A stretch of 45,713 bases of DNA, the filler included, from Myxococcota bacterium (GTDB lineage Bacteria > Myxococcota_C > UBA6777), in NCBI GenBank assembly GCA_023150835.1. It is 10 parts of 10 records of this genome, joined end to end, with 100 filler letters (N's around TTAATTAATTAA, not from the genome) between each part and the next. Parts side by side here need not be neighbours in the genome. Positions count along the whole stretch, not along the records: positions 26,840 to 32,038 come from JAKLKB010000227.1; 9 more parts are not named here. One strand, given 5' to 3'. Both the position numbers and the translations under genes were made by a program. Below, piece by piece: positions 1 to 42,472 of this stretch (positions within the stretch are counted from its first letter, which is position 1; each line of letters opens with the position of its first letter). A model generated the notes under the pieces. The model ran no database searches. It saw only the letters and a list, made by a program, of their open reading frames with translations, and was not told the DNA's origin.

Positions 1-388
1 CGAGGGCAGAGAGTTTGCTTTTCAAAGCTTCGGGCAATTGGAGCGAATCGCCTGTTTGGTTTTCGGTCGAGAGTTGTGCGCGACCTGTGAGGGCTTCGAT
101 CATGTTGCGTGCGTTGGGGGTCCATTGGAGGTCAGTGCGCCCCAAGATGGCGTTGAGATCGTCGCGTTCTTTGCTGGAGAGACCCGCTTTGGCTTCCTCG
201 AATTGTTGCTGGCGCGTCGCGCCGGGTTGTGTCAGACGTTGCAGGATGGTGGTCGAGGTATCGGCGTTGCGATCTCCCACGCCCGCAAGCAGCTCAAGTA
301 CGGTGTTGTCGTCGATCTTCTTGGTGGGTTGGCGGTCGACTTGGGCCATCACCTGCGAAAGTTGTTTGTCTTGGATTCGTACGGGCAT
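1..388 (-). CDS. Hypothetical protein, N-terminal part (runs off the window start)
   Basis: My translation: ATG at 388 preceded by TGAGGTGAGA (RBS-like), open to position 2 (MPVRIQDKQLSQVMAQVDRQPTKKIDDNTVLELLAGVGDRNAD...). The + strand ORFs 15..443 and 38..631 look like its antisense shadow. Confidence 0.7.
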   Translation of the reverse strand, partial: MPVRIQDKQLSQVMAQVDRQPTKKIDDNTVLELLAGVGDRNADTSTTILQRLTQPGATRQQQFEEAKAGLSSKERDDLNAILGRTDLQWTPNARNMIEALTGRAQLSTENQTGDSLQLPEALKSKLSAL

Positions 389-821
389 CGTCTCACCTCA
401 TCGCCTCAAAAATCGCCCAGATGTCTTGGATCAGGGCGGATAAACCATGAGCAAAGCAGTCACTTTGCCAAAAAGAAAGAATTTGTGCAAGCCAAGAAAG
501 CATACGGCACCGACAAAAAGACGGCACACGCGGTCGCCTTAGTATCTGCCCTGCGGCCCAAAAGTTGCGCTTTGTTTGCGCTCTTGCTCAAACATCGAAG
601 GGACAGGGAAGATCGCATGAGTTTGATGTGAGATAGGACTTACGCACTTGGGCTGATGTGGTGGGGTTTCACCCCACACCCCGCCATAGACTGTCGCCCC
701 TTGACCCCGAAAGGGGCGAAACGATCACTGCTTTTCACACAGACGACCCTCTCGCTTGGAATGCCGCGAACACGGGGTTTTTTGGGCAACTGCGTAAGTC
801 CTATGAGAGAAAAAGCGAGGA

Positions 822-2036
822 TTATTCGTTGGGATCTTGGGGGGGGCGACAGCGGGTGTTACAGGTTTCACGGACTCCGAAGGAGCAAGCTTTTTTGTAG
901 TATTCATCGGCTTGAGCGCAATTGGCTCGCGCTCCCATGCCGCGCTCAAACATCAAAGCAGCGTTGTTGCAACCTGCACCGTGGCTTGCATTGCAGGCTT
1001 GGATGTAGGCTTGCAAGGCTCCTGCGTAATCGCGTTGGCCGCCTTGCCCTCGGCGCAACATCCCGCCCAAACGATTGCAAGACTCTCCAAATTTCAAGGA
1101 ACATCCGCGCTGATAAGCACTTCGTGCCCGCGCATAATCCATCGGGATCTCTTTGGTGTTGAGATATAACTTCGCGAGATTGTGGCAGCCGTTGGCGTAG
1201 TTGAGGTTGCAAGAAAGATCGTAGTATTGGAGCGCTTTGGGCAGACTGCGTTCTCCACCCCGTCCGCTTCGATACAGCCAAGCCAAGTTGCTACAGCCCA
1301 GTCCATCGCGCAGTCCACAGGCTTGTTGGTAATAACCCATCGCACGGGGATAATCGCGTTTCACACCCAGCCCACGCATATACAGCTCGCCAACACGCGC
1401 ACATCCCACCCCGTTTTGCAGCCCACAGGATTTTTCGTAAAAGCTGCGCGCTCGGTTGAGATCGCGCTCAACGCCATCACCATCGCGATAGAAATCTCCG
1501 ATCTTTTGACAAGCATCCGCTCGGCCTTCTTGACAGGCACGTGCGACGCCTTGGACGGCAGCAGGAACATCGGTCGGGACGGGACGAGCCGCAGGTGGGG
1601 GTTCTTTGCCATCCGCAGGAGGCGGTGGTTCTTTGCCATCCGCAGGAGGCGGTGGAGGTTCTTTGTCGCCCGTGGAACCCGCAGGGGGCGGGTTGGCAGG
1701 GGTGGGATCTTGGGGGGGTTCTGCGCGGGGTGGCGGTTCTGCACCTGCACGCGCAAGCTGCCAATGCAAGATGCGCTTTTGTTTGGGGCGAACACGGATC
1801 TTTTCTGTGCGCGTTTGATAGCCGTTCATGCGCAACTCAACGGTGCGAACACCAGCCTCGACCTCGATCGACACGGGCTTTTGGCCCGTTTCGCCTTCGT
1901 TGACGCCATCGATATAAATCGTGGCCCCTGTGGGTTCGCTTGAGATCACCAAGGTTCCTTGTTTGGCGGCCCACGCAGGAAAACTTAGCAGTATGCCAAG
2001 CACCGCGATGAACGCGCACCTTATCTTTTTGTGCAT
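822..2036 (-). CDS. Secreted PEGA domain plus Sel1-like repeat protein
   Basis: Start MHKKIR after GGAGG. Signal peptide ending AWA, PEGA motif (LVISSEPTGATIYIDG), Pro-rich linker with DGKEPPPP repeats, and about 6 Cys-containing Sel1 repeats (GC.NLA.LY..G.G..RD..KA..YY..AC). Confidence 0.9.
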   Translation of the reverse strand: MHKKIRCAFIAVLGILLSFPAWAAKQGTLVISSEPTGATIYIDGVNEGETGQKPVSIEVEAGVRTVELRMNGYQTRTEKIRVRPKQKRILHWQLARAGAEPPPRAEPPQDPTPANPPPAGSTGDKEPPPPPADGKEPPPPADGKEPPPAARPVPTDVPAAVQGVARACQEGRADACQKIGDFYRDGDGVERDLNRARSFYEKSCGLQNGVGCARVGELYMRGLGVKRDYPRAMGYYQQACGLRDGLGCSNLAWLYRSGRGGERSLPKALQYYDLSCNLNYANGCHNLAKLYLNTKEIPMDYARARSAYQRGCSLKFGESCNRLGGMLRRGQGGQRDYAGALQAYIQACNASHGAGCNNAALMFERGMGARANCAQADEYYKKACSFGVRETCNTRCRPPQDPNE

Positions 2037-2095
2037 CGAGACCTCCCTCAAAAGATGAAGCGTTTGCGGGCTTCTTTTGTCCCGTATCGGGATGG

Positions 2096-2196
2096 GTTTT
2101 GAAACGAACACACCGAGGAGTGCTCCCTCCTTCGGGGCGGACGAGCATTGAAACAGAGGGGTCCGTTTTGAAGCGAACACACCGAGGAGTGCTCCC
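2096..2196. repeat. Two 32-bp direct repeats (GTTTTGAA(A/G)CGAACACACCGAGGAGTGCTCCC) separated by 37 nt
   Basis: Copies at 2096-2127 and 2165-2196 with one mismatch. Confidence 0.85.
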
Positions 2197-2272
2197 CCCC
2201 GACATCCAAAACATACGACAAACAACGTGCTTGTTGCACGCCGCATTAGACTAGGAAGATCACGATCGCTCG

Positions 2273-3244
2273 TCAATGGGTAGAAGAAACCGCCTCCTGT
2301 CCCACGCCGTTTTCTTCCAAGGGAAGCCAAGGAACCGTTGGGGACAGTTGGTCGATCAAAAATTCCAAAAACACACGCACCTTGGCCGAAAGATAACGAC
2401 GGCTCGGATAGACCGCAAAGATCGCCATCTCAGGAGGGTTCCAGCCCGGCAAGATCTGTTGGAGGGTTCCCGCATGAACTTGTTCGTGGCACAAAAAAGA
2501 CGGCAGCAAGGCGATCCCCATCCCCGCCAACGTCGCGTCACGCAAAAACAACATATCGTTCACCACCAAACGCCCCCGAACGGAGACGCTGACTTGTTCG
2601 TGCTTGGGATGTTCCAACCGCCACTCCGCATGGGGGTTTCCGCCGCCCGTATGGGGATTGCCACCGCCCAAAAGCAAACATTCGTACTGTGCGAGATCTT
2701 CGGGCTTTTTCGGGCATCCATGCGCTGCAAGATAACGCGGACTGGCATACAAGCGCGCAGAAGTCGGCCCCAGTTTGCGGGCCACCAAGGTTGAATCTTC
2801 GAGGCGTCCAATACGGATCGCCAGATCAAAGCCCTCTTCGATCACATTGACCACCCGCGAAGACAACATCATCTCGACAGTGACATCGGAGTATTTCGCC
2901 ATAAAGTCGGTCAAGATCGGTCGCAAAAAGGCCACCGCAAACGTCGTCGGAGCCGTGATCCGCAGATGCCCACAAGGGAATTGCTGCAACTCAGAGACCG
3001 TCAGTTCGGCCTCTTCGGCCTCTGCGATCAGCCTCGCACAGCGCTCATAAAAAGCCACGCCGACTTCGGTCAGGTTGAGGTTTCGCGTGGTGCGGTGGAT
3101 CAAGCGAACCCCTAAACGCTCTTCGAGCCGCGCCAATCGCCGACTCACGGTCGACTTCGGCAGCCCCATCGAACGCGCTGCATTTGTGATGCTCAACTCT
3201 TCTGCCACTTTGACGAAAACCGCCATCTCGTTGAGATCCGCCAT
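2273..3244 (-). CDS. LysR family transcriptional regulator (CrgA/DmlR-like)
   Basis: Start MADLNEMAVFVKVAEE after AAGGAG. HTH (SITNAARSMGLPKSTVSRRLARLEERLGVRL..RTTR) and substrate-binding domain (EEGFDLAIRIG, YPSRRYLSAKVRVF). Confidence 0.95.
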   Translation of the reverse strand: MADLNEMAVFVKVAEELSITNAARSMGLPKSTVSRRLARLEERLGVRLIHRTTRNLNLTEVGVAFYERCARLIAEAEEAELTVSELQQFPCGHLRITAPTTFAVAFLRPILTDFMAKYSDVTVEMMLSSRVVNVIEEGFDLAIRIGRLEDSTLVARKLGPTSARLYASPRYLAAHGCPKKPEDLAQYECLLLGGGNPHTGGGNPHAEWRLEHPKHEQVSVSVRGRLVVNDMLFLRDATLAGMGIALLPSFLCHEQVHAGTLQQILPGWNPPEMAIFAVYPSRRYLSAKVRVFLEFLIDQLSPTVPWLPLEENGVGQEAVSSTH

Positions 3245-3484
3245 CCCATCGCTCCTTTGTGGTCCACGCACAATCTCAGAAAACGTCTAACCTATTCTTC
3301 TACCCCCCTCTCGTCAACCCCGACGCAGGCCGAAATAAAAGCTGCTCTGCTGCTCCATGCAGTCAAATCGCGGCTCCATTCCGATGCCCCTGTTCTTTCC
3401 CTCGCTTGTTCACGAAGCGCCCCCCTCTTTCACCCCCGATAAATCGGGCTGCAAGCGGTAAAACGGTAAAACGGTAAACCGCAA

Positions 3485-4378
3485 TTAGGGGCTCGACCTG
3501 ACAACACGAAAACCGATGTCGCCGTAGCGGTCCGCCGGCGTGAGGCTGCTACGACGCGCCGCACGCACGCAGGAGGCACCGCTGCTCCAACCGCCACCCC
3601 GTAGCACGCGCCTTGTGCTTGTAGCTGCTCCAACAGGGTCCGTCGCTGCTTGGGCCGAATAACCACCAGACCAGTCATAGCACCACTCCCACACATTCCC
3701 CAGCGTATCGTGCAGCCCCCACGCATTGGCTTGTTTTTGCCCCACAATATGCGTTGTACCGCCGCTGTTCTCGCCGTACCATGCGATCTGGTCCAACTCC
3801 CCGTAGCGTGGGGTTGCCGCCCCTGCGCGACAAGCGTATTCCCACTCTGCTTCCGTCGGCAATCGCCAGCCTTTGCTTCCCACGTAGTCGCTTCCTTTGT
3901 TTCCCACACCCTCCATCTGCTCGCCAATTTCCACAAAACAAGCCGACAGCCCCTCCAACGCAGACAGTTTGTTTGCAAACACCGCTGCATCGTACCAACA
4001 CACACACTCCACAGGCGCTTCCAATCCTGCTTTCGTGAAATGCGACGGCTTCTTGCCCATCAAAGCGAGGTATTGGCCTTGTGTGACGGGCGTTTCCCCC
4101 ATCCAAAAGCCCCGTAAGATCGTCACTTCGTGTTGCGGCTTTTCGTTGCCACCAGCCTCTTTGCCGTCTGCTCCCGCACCCGCGAGGAAGCGCCCCACAG
4201 GAATCCAGCGCATCGCAATGTCCGCCTCGCCCACGAGAAACACCCGCCGCTCTCCTGCCGATGGTTCCGCGATCTTCGGTGGCGGTGGCGGTGCGACCAC
4301 CTCGATAAAACAAAACACCCCCGATTGGTACAGCTCCCCCAACTGCTCCAACTCTTCCATCAACACTTTCCTCTCCAT
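3485..4378 (-). CDS. FGE-sulfatase (SUMF1/CLec-fold) protein, putative DGR target, copy A
   Basis: Motifs WRLPTEAEWEYACRAG, NAWGLHDTLGNVWEWC, RVLRGGGW and GFRVVR. Short SHOCT-like N-terminus. Paralogue of the genes at 26840 and 29224. Confidence 0.9.
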   Translation of the reverse strand: MERKVLMEELEQLGELYQSGVFCFIEVVAPPPPPKIAEPSAGERRVFLVGEADIAMRWIPVGRFLAGAGADGKEAGGNEKPQHEVTILRGFWMGETPVTQGQYLALMGKKPSHFTKAGLEAPVECVCWYDAAVFANKLSALEGLSACFVEIGEQMEGVGNKGSDYVGSKGWRLPTEAEWEYACRAGAATPRYGELDQIAWYGENSGGTTHIVGQKQANAWGLHDTLGNVWEWCYDWSGGYSAQAATDPVGAATSTRRVLRGGGWSSGASCVRAARRSSLTPADRYGDIGFRVVRSSP

Positions 4379-4571
4379 CTCTTCCTCCCATCCGTTTTTT
4401 TTCGGGTGCGTTTGTGCGTGTCATCAAAAAGAGCGATGTCCAAAGCCGAGAACCCTTGACCGCTCCGCCTTGTTGTTTGACAGCCCTCCGCCCTCCTCAA
4501 CGTCATCCTTTTCCCACATCATTCACAGACGAATATCGCAAAGGCAAGACGCCGCCGATGATCTCGTCCGA

Positions 4572-4671
4572 NNNNNNNNNNNNNNNNNNNNNNNNNNNNN
4601 NNNNNNNNNNNNNNNTTAATTAATTAANNNNNNNNNNNNNNNNNNNNNNNNNNNNNNNNNNNNNNNNNNNN
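4572..4671. other. Artificial contig linker (N-run/TTAATTAATTAA/N-run); also at 9222-9321, 13793-13892, 18159-18258, 22454-22553, 26740-26839, 32039-32138, 38266-38365 and 42117-42216
   Basis: Identical 100-nt spacer with stop codons in all six frames. Confidence 0.99.
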
Positions 4672-9085: not shown

Positions 9086-9321
9086 CGTTTTTAAGGCGCG
9101 GAGACCCCCTTCTTTAGAGGGGGGAGGAAGCGCCGCCCTTTCTTTGTGTTGTGAGGGTGGTGGTTCGTGCGGCCAGCCGAGTGGTGGCCTTCTTGACATT
9201 GACGGAAGTGGTGAGGGTTTGNNNNNNNNNNNNNNNNNNNNNNNNNNNNNNNNNNNNNNNNNNNNTTAATTAATTAANNNNNNNNNNNNNNNNNNNNNNN
9301 NNNNNNNNNNNNNNNNNNNNN

Positions 9322-13364: not shown

Positions 13365-13892
13365 GATCAACTCCTCCCACACAGATACCCAACGCCACAA
13401 CTCGCCCTCACCATCCGTTCACATCGGATCTCACGGCACAGGCATTGCGGTATAAACAACGCGATCCACAAGGTCAAGGGTTCTTTGTCTCGATGATCTC
13501 GTGTGGCTCGCTATTTCGATCACACGCATCGACCCATACGATCTGTGATCGAAATAGCGTGCGTAGGCACCCTGTCATCGGGCAGCCACAAGGGGATGCC
13601 CCCATACGCGCCTTGTTAAGGTGGAAACCTCGTAGAGTCGGTCTTGATCGCCTTTTTTTTTCTCCCCCCCTCAATCCCCCCGTGAACGGGGGGAAGTTGG
13701 AACGGGCAGCGTCTGCGCGTCGTGCATACAGCGTGTGTCATGAAAAAACAAAATCCCCGCTGCTTCCGACTTTCGCTCCCTCCCCTGTTCACNNNNNNNN
13801 NNNNNNNNNNNNNNNNNNNNNNNNNNNNNNNNNNNNTTAATTAATTAANNNNNNNNNNNNNNNNNNNNNNNNNNNNNNNNNNNNNNNNNNNN

Positions 13893-18158: not shown

Positions 18159-18258
18159 NNNNNNNNNNNNNNNNNNNNNNNNNNNNNNNNNNNNNNNNNN
18201 NNTTAATTAATTAANNNNNNNNNNNNNNNNNNNNNNNNNNNNNNNNNNNNNNNNNNNN

Positions 18259-22453: not shown

Positions 22454-22879
22454 NNNNNNNNNNNNNNNNNNNNNNNNNNNNNNNNNNNNNNNNNNNNTTA
22501 ATTAATTAANNNNNNNNNNNNNNNNNNNNNNNNNNNNNNNNNNNNNNNNNNNNGCAGCGTCTGCATTTCGTGCATACAGCGTGCGTCATGAAAAAACAAA
22601 ATCCCCGATGCTTCCGACTTTCGCTCCCTCCCCTGTTCACGGGGGAGGGCGGGGTGGGGGGCTTTCCTCCGCTTCACCTAACGCCTATGGGGTTCCACCC
22701 CACACCCCGCAAGGGGTCGCAGCCCCCTTGACCCCGTGTGGGCGAAAAGAGCAGCCTTTTTTACACCAACGACTCTGTCGCTTGAACCTCCGCGAACACG
22801 GGGTTTTTACAACAGCTTCGCTGCACTCTACAAGCCGCATCCGTCCTGCGTTTCTGTGGGGCTTGCATCGCCCTGCTGT

Positions 22880-26637: not shown

Positions 26638-26839
26638 CGTTGACTCCTTCGTTTGAAAAGATCTCGGTGAATCCGAGAACACAGGGACTCTCCAAGCCCC
26701 TTTGAGAAATGCGCCGACTTTGACACGGATCTCTCGGCCNNNNNNNNNNNNNNNNNNNNNNNNNNNNNNNNNNNNNNNNNNNNTTAATTAATTAANNNNN
26801 NNNNNNNNNNNNNNNNNNNNNNNNNNNNNNNNNNNNNNN

Positions 26840-27295
26840 TGTTTTGTGGGAAGCGGGGAAAAGATGGAAGGGGTGGGGAACAAAGGAAGCGATTACGTCG
26901 GGTGCAAGGGCTGGCGTTTACCGACGGAAGCAGAGTGGGAATACGCTTGTCGTGCGGGTGCGACAACGCCGCGTTATGGAGAGTTAGACGAGATCGCGTG
27001 GCATGGGAAGAACAGCGGCAGCACAACGCATGTTGTGGGGCAAAAACAAGCCAATGCGTGGGGGTTGCACGATACGCTAGGGAATGTGTGGGAGTGGTGC
27101 TATGACTGGTTTGGTGGTTATTCGGCCCAAGCAGCTACAGACCTTGTTGGAGCAGCTACAGGCGCGAACCGCGTGAGGCGTGGTGGCAGTTGGAACTACA
27201 ACGCCTACTTCGTGCGGGCGGCGCAGCGCGGCAGCAACACGCCGACGTACCGCAACAACCTCATCGGTTTCCGTGTCGTCAGGTCGAGCCCCTAG
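26840..27295 (+). CDS. FGE-sulfatase/CLec protein, C-terminal part, putative DGR target, copy B
   Basis: Same FGE motifs as copy A. Truncated by the contig start. Asn-rich variable C-terminus. Confidence 0.9.
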   Translation, partial: CFVGSGEKMEGVGNKGSDYVGCKGWRLPTEAEWEYACRAGATTPRYGELDEIAWHGKNSGSTTHVVGQKQANAWGLHDTLGNVWEWCYDWFGGYSAQAATDLVGAATGANRVRRGGSWNYNAYFVRAAQRGSNTPTYRNNLIGFRVVRSSP

Positions 27296-27848
27296 TTGCG
27301 GTTTGCCGTTTTACCGTTTTACCGTTTGCGGCCCGAACAATCGGGGGTGAAAGAGGGTGGTCGCTTCGTGAACGAATGTGTTGTCCGTCGACAGTGCAGT
27401 AGTGTACGCAGTATAGAGTGCGGCGGGTTCTGATGGGCGTGGCGCTTCAGGACGCAAGGCAGCGAGCTCCGCCGCGCCGCGTCGTGAAGTGTCGCGCTAG
27501 GCTTGCGGAGCGAGGCGCAAGTTCGGGGGGGGGGTTAGGGGCGTCTGTGGCTGGGGTTGGCGATGATGGGAGAAAGCACCGGTGTTCGTGGAGGTTCAAG
27601 CGACAGAGGCGTTGTTTTGAAAAGCGACGTTCTTTTCGCCCTCGCGGGGTCAAGGGGCGACAGTCTATGGCGGGGGTTTGGGGGCAGGCCCCCAAAAACA
27701 ATGGAAGAATCAAGGTGTAGGTTTGCAGAAGAGAAAGGAAAAGGCGGATGAAGGTGAAGGTGTTCAATTGAAGTGATGATGAGGAGACGGGCGGATTTGA
27801 TAGCAGCGATTTGGAGGCGCTGGGGGAGGAGAAGAGAAGGGCGAGAGG

Positions 27849-28787
27849 TTATGATGTTTTGTTTGTTGTGGTGGGGTGTTGCTGATGGAGTAGAGAGGCG
27901 ATTTGTTCGTAAGAAAGGCCAGTCGCTTTGACGATGACATCGTGGGGGATGCCTTGGGCGAGCAAGTTTTTTGCGATTTCTCTTCTGCCTTCTTCAAGTC
28001 CGATCTCACGACCCTCTTCGATTCCGATCTCGCGACCCTCTTCGATTCCGATCTCGCGGCCTTTTTTAAGTCCAGATTGTCGAAGTGCTTCTTCACGAGC
28101 GTCGTGAAGGTCTTTGAAATCTTGGAGAGTTTCGGGGTCGAGTTGTTGAAGTTGTTGTGTTTGTGTCATGATGAGAAAGCTCCTATCGAAGTTGTAGAGG
28201 AGTGTATGGTAAGGCTCAAGGCGTTGTTGGACAACGTTAATCACGGCTTGCTTGCGTTGTCCACCTTTGCCGAGTAGGCAAAAGAGTAGGGTATCCTCGC
28301 GAAGTTCGATCTCCGAAGTGTTGACGGCGTAGATGGTTTCGCGAGGAAGCCCTTGCCATCGACGGATGCCGCTTTCGACGAGTTCGCCTTGTGCGGCGAA
28401 GACGGAATCGAGTGCTTTTTGTGGCCAATAGTTGAAGATGAGCCAGAGGACACCTTGTGGATAAGGACGACCCTTTTGGTCGTCGTGAGCGCGTTGAAGG
28501 GCAAGACGGAGTTTGGAGAGGTTGGCTTCGAGGCGCTTTTCGGGGACAGAGCCGCTAAAGGCTTCGACAAGACAGCGAGCATCACCCGTCAAACGGGTGA
28601 GCAAGCCAGCACCAAGAAAGTTCGGGGGGAGAGGTTTGTCGGGGATTAAGAGAACATCAGCGCGGAAGGTATCGGGTAAGAGGTCAGTTCCGACTTCAAC
28701 GTAGGTGGTATCGCCAAACAAGCCAGCAATGAGGAATTTGCTGAGGCGATCTTCAAACTGCGAGAGGGTCTTTTTTTGATGGTTCAT
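27849..28787 (-). CDS. Rpn/YhgA-like putative PD-(D/E)XK nuclease/transposase-related protein
   Basis: N-terminal E..ADVLLIP..GLL.RL..CLVEAF. C-terminal EEGREIG repeats and REIAKNLLAQG..IVKATGLS.EQI helix typical of Rpn-like tails. Confidence 0.65.
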   Translation of the reverse strand: MNHQKKTLSQFEDRLSKFLIAGLFGDTTYVEVGTDLLPDTFRADVLLIPDKPLPPNFLGAGLLTRLTGDARCLVEAFSGSVPEKRLEANLSKLRLALQRAHDDQKGRPYPQGVLWLIFNYWPQKALDSVFAAQGELVESGIRRWQGLPRETIYAVNTSEIELREDTLLFCLLGKGGQRKQAVINVVQQRLEPYHTLLYNFDRSFLIMTQTQQLQQLDPETLQDFKDLHDAREEALRQSGLKKGREIGIEEGREIGIEEGREIGLEEGRREIAKNLLAQGIPHDVIVKATGLSYEQIASLLHQQHPTTTNKTS

Positions 28788-29223
28788 CTTCAACCTAGGG
28801 GTGGTGGAGTGCAGGGTGGTCGGTTGCAAGGGGGATTTGTGAAGAGTAAAAGAAAGTGCGAGCGAAAACAAGATAGGAGTGACGCAGTTGGGGATGATCT
28901 GTCGTAAAATCGCCTTGTTGTAGGGGCGTATGGCATACGCCCTCGACCAAACAATGGGCTTCTTCGCATCCAACTGCGTAACTCCTAACAAGAAAAGAGG
29001 GGGGTCAGATTGTTTTTCCAGAGGTTGGCGAGTCGGGCGAGAGCATCGGCGGCGTCTTGCCTTTGCGATATTCGTTGGTGAATGATGTGGGGAAAGGATG
29101 ATATCGAGGAGGGCGGAGGGCTGCTAAACAATAAGGCGGAGCAGTCAAGGGTTCTCGGCTTTGGGCATCGCTGTTTTTGATGACACGCACAAACGCACCC
29201 GAAGAAACGGACAGGAGGAAGCG

Positions 29224-31109
29224 ATGGACAAGAAAGCGTTGATGGAAGAGTTGGAGCAGTTGGGGAAGTTGTACCAAGCGGGGGTGTTTTCACAGGCGGA
29301 GTTTGAAGCGCAACGAGCGGAGTTGTTGGAGCAGTTACGGTTGTTACGCAGTGGGCAGACGCCGATGCCGTCCAAAGGTGGTGGAAGTGGACTCAGCCAA
29401 GTACACGGTGCGGATGTGCTGGCAACGGGATTTGTGGGAGGGCAAGGGCAGACGGGGCTGGGTGTGGGTCGGGTGGTGGGGGAGCGTTATCGGTTGGTGC
29501 GGAGGTTGGGGCAAGGTGGGATGGGCGAAGTGTGGTTGGCCGAAGATATCCGCTTGGGTCGGGCGTTTGCGCTGAAGTTTTTGGCCGATGCGTTGGTGGG
29601 TTCAGCAGAAGCGTTGGGGCGGATGCACCGAGAATATGAAGTGCTCGAAAAACTGTCGCATCCGCATATTGTGCGCGTCTTCGATCTGGATCAGGACAAA
29701 GACAGCGGGCGCTGGTTTCTGCGAATGGAGTATGTGGAAGGCGGAGACTTGGGGAAAAAGATCGCGGTGGTGGCGCAACAAGCCCACCGACCGCTGTTTG
29801 GGATGGAGGTGATGGTAGGTTGGTTGGGGCAGCTAGTGGAGGCGTTGGATTATGCCCATCAACAGGGGATCTTGCACCGCGACATCAAGCCCGCAAATCT
29901 AATGCTGACGAGCGATCTGCAGCGATTGAAAGTGATGGACTTTGGGATAGCGCGTGTGGTGAGCGGAACACATACGACTCAACACACGGCGATGATGGGA
30001 TCGATGTACTATGCCGCACCTGAGCTTTTGCGTGGTCAAGTAGCCACTCCCTCAGCGGATATCTATTCGTTTGGTGTGTTGGTGTACGAGATGTTGACGG
30101 GGGAACCGCCGATGGGACATTTCGAGAAACCGTCTTTGGTGGTGGATGGGCTTTCGGTAGAGGTGGATCGACCGCTGCTGGGGATGTTATCGCCAAACCC
30201 GACAAAACGGGGAGAATCGTTGCGCGAGGCGTGGTCGCCGTTGCGGGATGCGCTGCTTGGAAAAGCGACGACAGTGGTTGTGCCACCCCAGCCCGCGCCA
30301 GCATCGCCAAAGATCGAGGTGATCGCACCGCCACCGCCACCGAAGATCGCGGAACCATCGGCAGGAGAGCGGCGGGTGTTTCGCGTGGGTGGGGCGGAGT
30401 TTGCGATGCGCTGGATCCCTGCGGGGCGTTTCCTCATGGGCGCAGGAGCCGATGACAAACAGGCCGATGGCGACGAAAAACCGCAACACGATGTGACAAT
30501 CACGCGGGGGTTTTGGATGGGGGAGGTGCCCGTCACACAGAGCCAATACCAAACGATCATGGGCCAAAATCCATCGCATTTCAAAAAGGCTGGATCGGAT
30601 GCACCTGTGGAGCGGGTGAGTTGGTACGATGCTGCGGTGTTTGCAAACGAACTGTCAGCGTTGGAGGGGCTATCGGCTTGTTTTGTGGGAAGCGGGGAAA
30701 AGATGGAAGGGGTGGGGAACAAAGGAAGCGATTACGTCGGGTGCAAGGGCTGGCGTTTACCGACGGAAGCAGAGTGGGAATACGCTTGTCGTGCGGGTGC
30801 GACAACGCCGCGTTATGGAGTGGAAACAGCGGCAAGACAACGCATGCTGTGGGGCAAAAACAAGCCAATGCGTGGGGGTTGCACGATACGCTAGGGAATG
30901 TGTGGGAGTGGTGCTATGACTGGTTTGGTGGTTATTCGGCCCAAGCAGCTACAGACCTTGTTGGAGCAGCTACAGGCACGAGCCGCGTGTTGCGTGGTGG
31001 CGGTTGGAACGACAACGCCTACAGCGTGCGGGCGGCGCAGCGTTTCGACTACGCGCCGTCGTCCCGCTACTACTACTTCGGTTTCCGTGTCGTCAGGTCG
31101 AGCCCCTAG
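29224..31109 (+). pseudogene. SHOCT + Ser/Thr kinase + FGE-sulfatase/CLec protein, putative DGR target, copy C, frameshifted near 30820
   Basis: LEQLGKLYQAGVFSQAEFEAQRAELL (SHOCT). Kinase motifs LGQGGMGEVW, HRDIKPAN, DFG and YAAPE. FGE domain split between ORFs 29161..30894 and 30513..31109 by a net 25-nt deletion relative to copy B. Confidence 0.85.
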
Positions 31110-31786
31110 TTGCGGTTTGCCGTTTTACCGTTTTACCGTTTGCGGCCCGAACAATCGGGGGTGAAGAGGAGGGCGGCTTCGTGAACGAATGTGTTGTCCC
31201 TGGACAGTGCAGTAGTGTATGCAGTATAGAGTGCGGTGGGTTCTGATGGGCGTGGCGCTTCAGGACGCAAGGCAGCGAGCTCCGCCGCGCCGCGTCGTGA
31301 AGTGTCACGCTAGGCTTGAGGAGCGAGGCGCAAGTTCGGGGGGGGTTAGGCTGGGAGGGTTAGGGTGGGGGGCGTCTGTGGCTGAAGTTGGCGATGATGG
31401 GAGAAAACATCGGTGTTCGTGGAGGTTCAAGCGACAGAGGCGTTGTTTTGAAAAGCGATGTTCTTTTCGCCCTCGCGGGGTCAAGGGGCGACAGTCTATG
31501 GCGGGGGTTTGGGGGCAGGCCCCACAGAAAGAGGCTGCAAAAAGGCAACGCCCCACTTATTCACATTTGGCTCATGTTGTGTTTTGAGGTCTTCTAAGGT
31601 ACCTCATGAGCGACGTTTTTGATCGAGTGGGTCCGTTCAAACCAACGCCATGAGAGAGGTATCAAGAGGCAACACTTCTCAGCGAAGGCAACCACACATG
31701 GTTGCCCCTACGTGTTGGAAATCACACGGTGTTTTATAGGGGCAGACAGGTGTGCCTGCCCGATCTCTGTTGCGTCGGTGACCTCT

Positions 31787-32038
31787 TCATCGCTGTCTGT
31801 TTTGAACGAACCCCCGCAAGGGGAGGAGGTATCTTTGGGTCGCGGCTTGACGAGGGTAGGCGAGATCGAGGTGGGAGGCTTGGACTTGGAGGACGCCGAG
31901 GATGTCGTGCCACTGCCGTTCAGAGACACCACCACCCATTTGGAACCAACGGAGCTTGTGCAGGATGGTATCTTCGGGACTTGCGAGGTAGAGGGCGGTG
32001 GAGGTGGTTTCATCGAGGGGGACACGCTGACGGCGTTT
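31787..32038 (-). CDS. Nucleotidyltransferase-like (AbiEii/DUF6036-type) protein, C-terminal part
   Basis: My translation ...LYLASPEDTILHKLRWFQMGGGVSERQWHDILGVLQVQASHLDLAY... Not in the ORF track because the start lies beyond the contig end. Confidence 0.7.
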   Translation of the reverse strand, partial: KRRQRVPLDETTSTALYLASPEDTILHKLRWFQMGGGVSERQWHDILGVLQVQASHLDLAYPRQAATQRYLLPLRGFVQNRQR

Positions 32039-32364
32039 NNNNNNNNNNNNNNNNNNNNNNNNNNNNNNNNNNNNNNNNNNNNTTAATTAATTAANNNNNN
32101 NNNNNNNNNNNNNNNNNNNNNNNNNNNNNNNNNNNNNNGCAGCGTCTGCATTTCGTGCATACAGCGTGCGTCATGAAAAAACAAAATCCCCGATGCTTCC
32201 GACTTTCGCTCCCTCCCCTGTTCACGGGGGAGGGCGGGGTGGGGGGCTTTCCTCCGCTTCACCTAACGCCTATGGGGGTAATCCCCTGTGGCTGCCCGAG
32301 AACAGGGCGTCTTCTCTCAGATATCGTCAGGCCACAAGACACGAAAACCAAAGGACATCAGACC

Positions 32365-38265: not shown

Positions 38266-38772
38266 NNNNNNNNNNNNNNNNNNNNNNNNNNNNNNNNNNN
38301 NNNNNNNNNTTAATTAATTAANNNNNNNNNNNNNNNNNNNNNNNNNNNNNNNNNNNNNNNNNNNNGCCCTCCCCCGTGAACAGGGGAGGGAGCGAAAGTC
38401 GGAAGCATCGGGGATTTTGTTTTTTCATGACGCACGCTGTATGCACGAAATGCAGACGCTGCCCGTTCCAACTTCCCCCCGTTCACGGGGGGATTGAGGG
38501 GGGGGAGAAAAAAAAAGGCGATCAAGACCGACTCGACGAGGTTTCCACCTTAACAAGGCGCGTATGGGGTTTCACCCCACGCCCCACAAGGGAGCGCGGC
38601 TCCCTTGACCCCGTATCGGTGGGGTGAATAGCGATGTTTAAACCAACAACGGCACTGCTTGAAGTTCCGCGAACATGGGGTTTTTTGTTCGCTGCGCCGT
38701 TGCTATGATCGTTTGATGGCATCGTTTTGGGGTGGTGTTTTAATCGGATGGTTGCACAAGAGGGAGGAGTGT

Positions 38773-42116: not shown

Positions 42117-42472
42117 NNNNNNNNNNNNNNNNNNNNNNNNNNNNNNNNNNNNNNNNNNNNTTAATTAATTAANNNNNNNNNNNNNNNNNNNNNNNNNNNN
42201 NNNNNNNNNNNNNNNNACACGCTGTATGCACGACGCGCAGACGCTGCCCGTTCCAACTTCCCCCCGTTCACGGGGGGATTGAGGGGGGGCGACAAAAGAA
42301 ACGGCGATCAGGCTAGACTATCCGGTGTTTCCACCTTAACAAGGCGCGTATGGGGCGTGGCCCCACACCCCACAAGGGAGCTTGGCCTCCTTGACTCCGC
42401 ACCATCTTACACCAAGCCGACCCAAAAAAGCACAGGTACCACCCCGTTGCTTGCTCAGGCCGAGGTTTTCCG

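Follow-up and report, generated by a model that had tools for sequence, protein, structure and literature searches.

The window analyzed here is a 45,713-nucleotide stretch of an uncultured Myxococcota bacterium (GenBank assembly GCA_023150835.1), made up of ten short contigs joined via N44-TTAATTAATTAA-N44 linkers. The assembly is a metagenome bin of 239 contigs with a completeness estimate of 93%. Three genes in the window, designated A, B, and C, end in regions homologous to a template, TR1, located elsewhere in the genome. The features are as follows.

3400-3498, minus strand: conserved 3' flank behind gene A.
3485-4378, minus strand: gene A, encoding a 297-aa FGE protein (Pfam FGE-sulfatase, E=2.5e-46).
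3499-3618, minus strand: VR_A, an older 120-nt region homologous to TR1, with adenine-site mismatches.
26840-27295, plus strand: gene B, an FGE-sulfatase/C-type-lectin-fold gene represented by its 3' 151 codons (Pfam FGE-sulfatase, E=2.9e-31, profile positions 104-255).
27162-27281, plus strand: VR_B, a 120-nt TR1 homolog in which FGE gene fragment B ends.
27282-27390, plus strand: conserved 3' flank of the variable regions, common to copies A, B, C, D, E, and H and the C88 remnant.
27646-27830, plus strand: dispersed repeat with a remnant of the first 28 codons of HRDC, downstream of B (92% identity over 185 nt to C185:10674-10855).
29161-31109, plus strand: gene C, a SHOCT-Ser/Thr protein kinase-FGE fusion (Pfam Pkinase, E=1.5e-48; FGE-sulfatase split over two frames).
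30976-31095, plus strand: VR_C, 120 nt homologous to TR1, with adenine-site mismatches (Fisher P=2.5e-13).
31096-31200, plus strand: the same conserved 3' flank behind gene C.

In the contig map, the 5' end of gene B is cut by the start of contig C221. The assembly splits gene C into two frames (29161-30894 and 30513-31109), since C lacks, at 30820/30821 and 30823/30824, 25 nt that B has. Gene A retains the N-terminal SHOCT-like helix of the kinase fusions and has no kinase domain; its N terminus is common to three further copies (D, I, and J). The segment matched by the repeat downstream of B, C185:10674-10855, is the start of the HRDC gene adjoining TR1, and tblastn aligned the HRDC remnant at 85.7% over 28 aa. 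HRDC is a DGR accessory gene.

A sequence-only reading of the window had aligned the terminal 135 nt of A, B, and C without gaps and attributed their divergence to a DGR. The gapless alignment was reproduced. B and C differ at 22 positions, distributed 14/7/1 over codon positions 1/2/3, and the reported placement of 21/22 differences at positions 1 and 2 was thus confirmed (binomial P=0.0016 versus a 2/3 expectation). All 22 lie inside 27164-27263 (30978-31077 in C). A gapped alignment of 26840-27400 revealed zero differences in the 130 nt before (27034-27163) and in the 86 nt after (27264-27349), in agreement with the claim that B and C are identical for about 250 nt upstream save one small patch. 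That patch, 26982-27033, holds the sole upstream differences: C is without 22+3 nt and carries 4 substitutions, a 25-nt frameshifting deletion that had gone unmentioned. A and B differ at 35 of the 135 positions, and since these differences are split 13/11/11 over the codon positions, the 11 at position 3 bear out the third-position drift described for A.

B and C might instead be strain alleles of one gene placed on one contig, the differences between them reflecting population variation at a single DGR target. B does lie at the very start of C221. Sample comparison of positions 26840-32038 used Logan contigs from four runs, which are mostly 200-1400 nt long and from which rare variants have been dropped; these contigs are fragmented around the genes, and in each run 29-78 records could be placed at two positions. 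However, C lies 3.7 kb further along the same contig as B, and the downstream DNA of the two genes differs after about 90 nt. Further, run X1 has the unique 1.4 kb behind B (27663-29040) as one clean contig, and 4/4 runs cover it. We therefore consider the allele explanation highly improbable and treat B and C as separate genes.

BLASTN of the variable regions against the assembly, followed by direct reading, identified an AAC-rich noncoding copy, TR1, on contig C185 (G000:C185:9754-9873, minus strand). TR1 is 120 nt long and contains 36 A and 13 AAC codons, with 35/36 adenines at codon positions 1 and 2. It agrees letter for letter with the template that had been predicted from the window, with A and T at the two sites left ambiguous. 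In the established DGR mechanism, an RT copies template RNA with errors opposite adenine, and the resulting cDNA takes the place of the variable region. Consistent with this mechanism, 21/22 of the B/C differences coincide with TR1 adenines.

Where the sequence-only reading had listed three targets, the assembly contains at least ten TR1-type variable regions (A to J). The expectation that targets would be remote was also correct, as they are found on contigs other than that of TR1. Mismatches to TR1 at A sites versus other sites numbered 23/36 versus 8/84 in VR_A, 13/36 versus 1/84 in VR_B, 20/36 versus 0/84 in VR_C (the Fisher P of 2.5e-13 given above), 14/36 versus 2/84 in copy D, 21/36 versus 6/84 in E, 15/36 versus 6/84 in F, 18/30 versus 8/75 in G, 18/35 versus 6/80 in H, 19/36 versus 14/84 in I, and 14/36 versus 10/84 in J. 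Pooled over the ten variable regions, 175/353 A sites and 61/827 other sites are mismatched, which upholds the predicted concentration at adenines. The count of 8 non-adenine mismatches in A, versus 1 in B and 0 in C, supports the suggestion that A is older.

An origin involving no retroelement would require that the paralogues diverged under diversifying selection or by gene conversion among FGE paralogues. The genome encodes about 46 FGE-domain genes (50 matches, including the two templates described here and split gene C), and exchange among paralogues is therefore conceivable. Selection, however, leaves unexplained both the adenine placement of the B/C differences and the location of 175/236 pooled mismatches on template adenines, and it does not account for a noncoding, AAC-rich copy directly behind an RT remnant. 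This origin is barely credible. The last 120 nt of genes A, B, and C were almost certainly written by a DGR with TR1 as the template.

The FGE-sulfatase domain reaches the last residues in A, B, C, D, E, F, G, I, J, and both targets of a second template, TR2; copy H is an orphan 46-codon remnant. Ser/Thr-kinase-FGE fusions make up copies C, D, E, I, and J, and one TR2 target, on C182, is a caspase-PEGA-FGE protein. Most targets are Ser/Thr-kinase-FGE fusions, an architecture already described for DGRs.

A conserved flank of ~95 nt follows the variable region in 7/11 copies. It contains an IMH-like GGTCGAGCCCC stretch that includes the stop codon, three or four imperfect copies of the 8-nt repeat TTTTACCG, and a small 5-bp hairpin, CCCGA-NNNN-TCGGG, predicted in 4/4 folds. 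The folding energies of the flanks were no better than those of shuffled sequences (z from -0.03 to -1.55), so that the hairpin is notable for its recurrence only. TR-VR homology ends at GTCGTCA, and no IMH/IMH* pair was recognizable. On the template side, the 118 nt 3' of TR1 are kept, including a 10-bp hairpin, and are 100% identical in a same-genus genome. By visual reading, this hairpin recurs behind TR2 and behind the TR of a relative, G003, with changed stem letters.

The sequence-only reading had anticipated a DGR-clade RT and avd beside the template. DGR-type RT sequence does adjoin TR1, but it is a C-terminal remnant behind HRDC, with no avd. HRDC (PF00570, 63.1 bits versus a cutoff of 23.8) directly abuts, at about C185:10262-10300, an RT fragment matching RVT_1 profile positions 146-205 only. 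This fragment is the C-terminal third of the protein, from the YMDD box onward, about the first two-thirds having been lost; it retains an open reading frame of 171 codons, stops 7 nt short of TR1, and is 46% identical to the RT of G003. A tblastn search of C185 found neither N-terminal RT sequence nor avd. The same shortened HRDC-RT-TR1 structure was recovered by an independent assembler: in run X1, the source sample, TR1, 803 letters, and the HRDC start lie on one unbranched 1256-nt Logan contig, with a depth of 13.5 versus 12.1 for a neighboring single-copy contig.

A second cassette, in the order avd-RT-TR2, is located on C63. The proposal that one DGR serves several remote targets was therefore correct insofar as TR1 has several, but the genome also has this second template with targets of its own. 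Two of these are clean: mismatches to TR2 fall at 23/36 A sites versus 3/86 other sites on C182 and at 19/36 versus 7/86 on C204. C147, C128, and C62 were rejected as further TR2 targets because their non-adenine mismatches (20-27/86) are about as many as the adenine ones. The target adjoining TR2 is decayed, with an in-frame TGA. The C63 Avd scored 86.9 bits with NF033474 (cutoff 80) and 56.9 with PF22296 (cutoff 40). PF22296 matched only C63 in the assembly and nothing in the TR1 cassette, and PF05635, the older Avd family, had no match in the genome.

The C63 RT contains the LPIGNLTSQHFAN stretch, a DGR signature. Among 600 candidate stretches examined, 545 were relatives of this RT at E<=1e-3, and the best 80 of these 545 were 42-54% identical and came from MAGs of many bacterial and archaeal phyla. 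In the C63 gene, a deletion of 23 nt at about C63:18040-18060 shifts the frame immediately upstream of the YxDD box: the sequence reads ...DHAAKE, 7 nt, MDD..., against 30 nt at the same place in the relative. PF00078 and tblastn searches of the assembly found DGR-type RT sequence only on C63 and C185 and no intact DGR RT, both DGR RTs being defective. The two other RVT_1-bearing loci were considered as sources of trans-acting DGR RTs and rejected, the one on C183 as an RT-primase fusion of the group-II/CRISPR-associated type and the one on C85 as a tandem retron-type RT. Because the assembly contains no intact DGR RT gene, we classify both cassettes as degenerate DGRs and regard the gene ends as variable regions that a DGR has written, rather than as an active DGR.

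Related genomes retain the cassette to different extents. In the family relative, G003:C901 keeps HRDC, avd, RT, and TR, in that order. In the same-genus genome G001, the HRDC body, avd, and RT are all lost, and the HRDC start codon is fused to a template that lacks its first 13 nt and has drifted; six variable regions of G001 still fit the TR1 of G000 (for example, 19/36 versus 0/84). With the query used, no DGR RT was found in the two same-genus genomes (86% and 64% complete). A metagenome collection yielded no intact sister cassette, since an exact 45-nt TR1 pattern had 0 matches and none of 358 pattern matches to HRDC protein relatives was confirmed.

These results support the DGR origin proposed in the sequence-only reading, through TR1 and the adenine bias; its present-tense "hypermutates" lacks support, as the RTs are truncated or frameshifted. 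We propose that TR1 RNA would have been copied by the RT with misincorporation opposite adenine, and that the mutated cDNA would have replaced the variable region, possibly guided by the conserved 3' flank. Diversification would have taken place after the duplications that gave rise to B, C, and D and stopped recently, leaving the kinase-FGE repertoire frozen. We assign a probability of roughly 0.6 to DGR-written gene ends with a now frozen repertoire as the whole explanation. The DGR is probably inactive in the source organism today, and because the RT beside TR1 is cut down, the locus probably represents a known system in frozen form.

Homing last took place very recently, because C, B, and D have 0, 1, and 2 non-adenine mismatches per 84 sites and TR1 is pristine. 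This recency is also compatible with a system that is still active. TR1 RNA might continue to rewrite variable regions via RT and Avd supplied in trans, either from an intact cassette variant that some members of the population carry or that lies in the unassembled 7%, or from the C63 RT, should its frameshift prove to be an assembly error. Misassembly of repeated DNA could account for the deletions of ~23-25 nt in gene C and in the C63 RT, and an intact RT is possibly unassembled or confined to a minority of cells, given a bin of 239 contigs that is 93% complete. The preservation of TR1 and of its 118-nt 3' stretch, the latter identical in the same-genus genome, and the recurrence of the hairpin with altered stems point in the same direction, and trans use and minority intact variants have been reported for Thiohalocapsa DGRs (PMC10907252). 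A possible alternative allele of VR_C adds to this evidence: a 202-nt contig in run X4, from another study, spans VR_C and both flanks with 20 differences from C, matches none of B (22 differences), D (24), or A (40), and may represent such an allele. Among the 40 Logan-contig differences listed, beyond which there were 243 further ones, none lies inside a variable region; since the Logan pieces are short and many fit two places, variation of the variable regions between samples is unreadable. Against continued activity stand the lack of an intact DGR RT in the assembly, the C63 avd as the sole avd found, the unbranched, single-copy-depth contig of the shortened cassette in the source sample, the lack of a DGR RT among the matches in the two same-genus genomes, and the decayed target beside TR2. 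We hold continued activity to be a tentative alternative. In an unlikely elaboration, on/off structural variants of the cassette would coexist in the population: most cells would carry a deletion-disabled RT while retaining TR1 and its perfectly conserved 3' RNA hairpin, and rare intact cassettes, or the RT and Avd of the second DGR, would rewrite at least 10 kinase-sensor genes in trans, in bursts. If so, orphan templates such as the HRDC-start::TR fusion of the sister species would be functional components rather than debris.

Nothing in the locus requires a new mechanism, and it represents an ordinary case of a known DGR system. It offers a well-resolved chromosomal DGR serving at least ten dispersed targets, the majority Ser/Thr-kinase-FGE fusions, along with a caspase-FGE fusion. 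It agrees with the proposal in the literature that hypermutation acts on putative sensor proteins in social or multicellular bacteria. With different deletions in one cassette, two sister genomes provide a natural series for DGR loss and repertoire freezing. Our literature search, in which papers on myxobacteria were judged by title, found no paper on DGRs in Myxococcota or myxobacteria.

Among known systems, the Treponema denticola DGR (TvpA) belongs to the HRDC-containing "architecture C" in the survey of Wu et al. 2018 (PMC5758913). By the published description, it is chromosomal and not phage-borne, has HRDC, and serves many remote FGE/C-type-lectin-fold targets per template, as here; our system differs in its truncated RT and uncultured Myxococcota host. 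The largest number of remote targets per template in that survey is seven (PMC5758913). Ten variable regions match TR1, but only B, C, and D meet the survey's standard of "A-to-N only, minor exceptions" (PMC5758913). Cyanobacterial DGRs, as described by Vallota-Eastman et al. 2020 (PMC7517822), have Ser/Thr-kinase-CLec and orthocaspase-CLec variable proteins with remote paralogues. They thus share with our system the kinase-FGE and caspase-FGE target architectures and dispersed paralogues with graded TR/VR homology (PMC7517822), whereas ours lies in another phylum, has a SHOCT-like helix N-terminal to the kinase, and has two defective cassettes. Thiohalocapsa PB-PSB1, as described by Doré et al. 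2024 (PMC10907252), likewise has several DGR loci per genome, some incomplete, with targets matched to a distant template and with kinase and caspase-like domains. In that organism, metagenomes served to measure diversification, and long reads revealed intact structural variants (PMC10907252), whereas our system is known from assembled contigs. The Bordetella phage BPP-1 prototype (summarized in PMC7159879) differs in gene order and targets: here the RT precedes the TR and is accompanied by HRDC, the targets are remote, cellular genes and not a tail fiber, and there is no clear IMH/IMH* pair. BPP-1 resembles our system in its adenine-specific TR/VR pair, AAC-rich template codons, and C-terminal C-type-lectin VR, and it shares Avd with the TR2 cassette.

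The 135-nt 3′ ends of copies A, B, and C, three FGE genes in the window, align without gaps. B and C differ there at 22 sites (14 at first, 7 at second, and 1 at third codon positions), all inside 27164-27263, and a gapped alignment shows zero differences in the 130 nt upstream and 86 nt downstream of that interval. An upstream patch consists of a 22- plus 3-nt deletion and four substitutions in C; owing to the deletion, gene C reads as two separate frames, 29161-30894 and 30513-31109. A and B differ at 35 sites, evenly over codon positions (13/11/11). Every particular of these ends reported by the sequence-only reading, which had attributed them to adenine mutagenesis by a diversity-generating retroelement (DGR) and predicted template letters, was confirmed. 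BLASTN of the three gene ends against the whole source assembly (G000), followed by alignment, located the template, TR1, a copy on contig C185 whose variable codons are all AAC, ACG, AAA, or ATC. TR1 reads exactly as predicted, the two ambiguous sites being A and T. Of its 36 adenines, 35 fall on the first or second base of a codon in the variable-region frame, and template adenines underlie 21 of the 22 B/C differences, the remaining one being a synonymous CGC/CGT change. The DGR reading proved correct; sequence alone could give no stronger evidence that a DGR wrote the A, B, and C ends from TR1.

C185, minus: HRDC gene, first in the cassette, Pfam domain at residues 88-151
C185, minus: reverse transcriptase (RT) frame, ~40 nt after HRDC, its RVT_1 match confined to the final quarter of the profile, beginning at the YMDD box
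C185:9754-9873, minus: TR1, 120 nt, 36 adenines, 13 AAC codons
Window 1-4571 (contig C211): copy A
Window 26840-32038 (contig C221): copies B and C; the contig start cuts off the 5′ end of B

Ten variable regions in the genome, A to J, match TR1.

Variable regions matching TR1: contig, changes at template A sites, changes at non-A sites
A: C211, 23/36, 8/84
B: C221, 13/36, 1/84
C: C221, 20/36, 0/84
D: C118, 14/36, 2/84
E: C9, 21/36, 6/84
F: C99, 15/36, 6/84
G: C39 (15-nt deletion), 18/30, 8/75
H: C58, 18/35, 6/80
I: C13, 19/36, 14/84
J: C120, 14/36, 10/84
Pooled A-J: 175/353, 61/827

Over the ten copies, template A was replaced by G 87 times, by T 59 times, and by C 29 times. The copies form a gradient from C, B, and D, freshly homed, to I and J, long abandoned. 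An extra TR1-type 3′ remnant of 65 nt lies on C88. C, D, I, and J are SHOCT-Ser/Thr kinase-FGE fusions and E is a kinase-FGE protein of 1148 residues; A retains an N-terminal helix and the FGE domain, with the kinase absent, and F and G are FGE copies whose N termini carry no family assignment. The genome holds 50 FGE-sulfatase matches, corresponding to ~46 genes. H is an orphan variable region (G000:C58:21645-21822, locus L031 1199-1339, minus): its 46-codon frame has nothing beyond the stretch homologous to TR1 and a conserved 3′ flank, and FGE-gene homology ends at the template start.

That flank, the ~95 nt that follow the stop codon, is common to variable regions A to E, H, and the C88 remnant and contains GGTCGAGCCCC, an imperfect TTTTACCG unit in three or four copies, and the hairpin CCCGA-NNNN-TCGGG. 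The 8-nt tandem unit (e.g., window 27300-27330, 31114-31144, and 3455-3485) varies in copy number among paralogues, E having one extra. A hairpin with a UUAC/UUAU-type loop also lies behind each of TR1, the second template TR2 on contig C63, and the template of a same-family relative, G003, with different stem letters in TR1 and G003. DGRs need cis elements. None of the predicted folds of these flanks was better than shuffled controls, so the hairpins are candidate cis elements only. An HRDC-start remnant 350 nt behind B (92% identity over 185 nt, dispersed repeat included) suggests that B formerly adjoined a cassette copy.

The expectation that a template-like copy would sit near a DGR RT and avd held in part: C185 carries the template and an RT fragment, TR1 beginning 7 nt past the stop codon of the RT frame, and neither avd nor N-terminal RT sequence was found on that contig. 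A homologous cassette in G003 (contig C901) reads HRDC-avd-RT-TR within 2.3 kb. About 1.1 kb has thus been lost from C185. A 1256-nt Logan contig from metagenome run X1 has 803 letters between TR1 and the HRDC start; its depth, 13.5, is close to that of the neighboring single-copy contig, 12.1. The loss is therefore not peculiar to one assembler; X1 is possibly the source sample, in which case its reads are not independent.

No DGR-type RT was found in the assembly besides the C185 and C63 sequences. An RT on C183 (G000:C183:40475-42964, locus L005 1129-3618, plus; open frame of at least 830 aa) has an archaeo-eukaryotic primase/PrimPol-like domain as fusion partner (Pfam AEP-TOTE, PADLOC PrimPol) and is not DGR-type. 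A 721-aa protein on C85 (G000:C85:4035-6200, locus L007 178-2343, minus) has two tandem retron-type RT domains, with RT_XIII as top PADLOC model (366 bits).

The C63 cassette is ordered avd-RT-TR2-FGE gene. Its Avd passes the NCBI DGR Avd model. Of 600 candidate stretches, 545 were confirmed as relatives of the intact part of its RT; the best 80 share 42-54% identity and derive from metagenome-assembled genomes spanning many phyla of bacteria and archaea. Only 7 nt separate ...DHxxKE from MDD in this RT, versus 30 nt in the relative; the deletion causes a frameshift and takes out the conserved stretch ahead of the catalytic box. The cassette's own target, the FGE gene immediately following TR2 (G000:C63:16252-17112), is a pseudogene: its drifted variable region opens with an in-frame TGA and carries many non-adenine changes. 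TR2 targets are a caspase-PEGA-FGE and a Sel1-FGE protein; the variable regions on C182 and C204 have changes at 23/36 and 19/36 A sites and at 3/86 and 7/86 other sites, respectively. These two are clean; three more candidates were dropped.

Genome G001, of the same genus, has its HRDC promoter and start codon fused directly to the template (G001:C506:380-643, locus L034), which lacks its first 13 nt; the HRDC body, avd, and RT are all absent. The junction, near a short GTGAAA-like repeat common to both sides, looks like a microhomology deletion. The template has since drifted (several substitutions, one codon lost), and the 118 nt downstream are 100% identical to G000. Six G001 variable regions fit the G000 TR1 with the adenine pattern (e.g., 19/36 A versus 0/84 other sites, 25/36 versus 2/84, and 12/35 versus 2/84). 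With the query used, neither G001 (86% complete) nor a second same-genus genome, G002 (64% complete), yielded a DGR RT. Two different deletions of one cassette in two bins favor real decay over artifact.

We put at about 0.6 the probability that the system is frozen, with no further writing in this organism: both RTs are defective, the TR1 cassette lacks avd, its deleted form occurs at single-copy depth, and decay has gone further in the sister species. The somewhat less probable alternative, a DGR still active, would fit the pristine TR1, the 0-2 non-adenine mismatches of C, B, and D, and the RT remnant beside TR1, which remains an open frame; the bin is 93% complete, and one contig of another study spans the variable region of C but differs from it at 20 sites, a pattern matching none of the known paralogues.

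The element is a degenerate DGR of an already known type, probably no longer active in this organism. Chromosomal HRDC-bearing DGRs with many remote targets are described in a 2018 survey, where the maximum, in Treponema, was seven nonadjacent targets (PMC5758913). Other accounts include kinase-CLec and orthocaspase-CLec targets that have dispersed paralogues in cyanobacteria (PMC7517822), incomplete loci, use in trans, and structural variants in Thiohalocapsa (PMC10907252), and FGE domains of conflict systems tied to DGRs in multicellular bacteria (PMC7159879). Our literature search found no papers on DGRs in Myxococcota; supplements of the cited papers may list cases.

The window comprises 10 short contigs (3.5-6.1 kb) of a 239-contig, 7.56-Mb assembly rather than one genome stretch. 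They are unrelated and joined by nine artificial linkers (N44-TTAATTAATTAA-N44), so gene adjacency across linkers is meaningless.

Artificial linkers in the window: 4572-4671, 9222-9321, 13793-13892, 18159-18258, 22454-22553, 26740-26839, 32039-32138, 38266-38365, 42117-42216

Runs with matching DNA come from activated-sludge, wastewater, and similar metagenomes of nine studies. Between B and C lies a 380-aa open frame (27849-28991, minus) with a EGREIGIEEGREIG repeat near its C terminus and no Pfam match. Dispersed MITE-like repeats of 100-400 nt (window ~27579-27699, 31404-31529, and 31364-31885), with well over 100 genome copies and depth spikes in 4/4 runs examined, probably explain the shortness of the window contigs.
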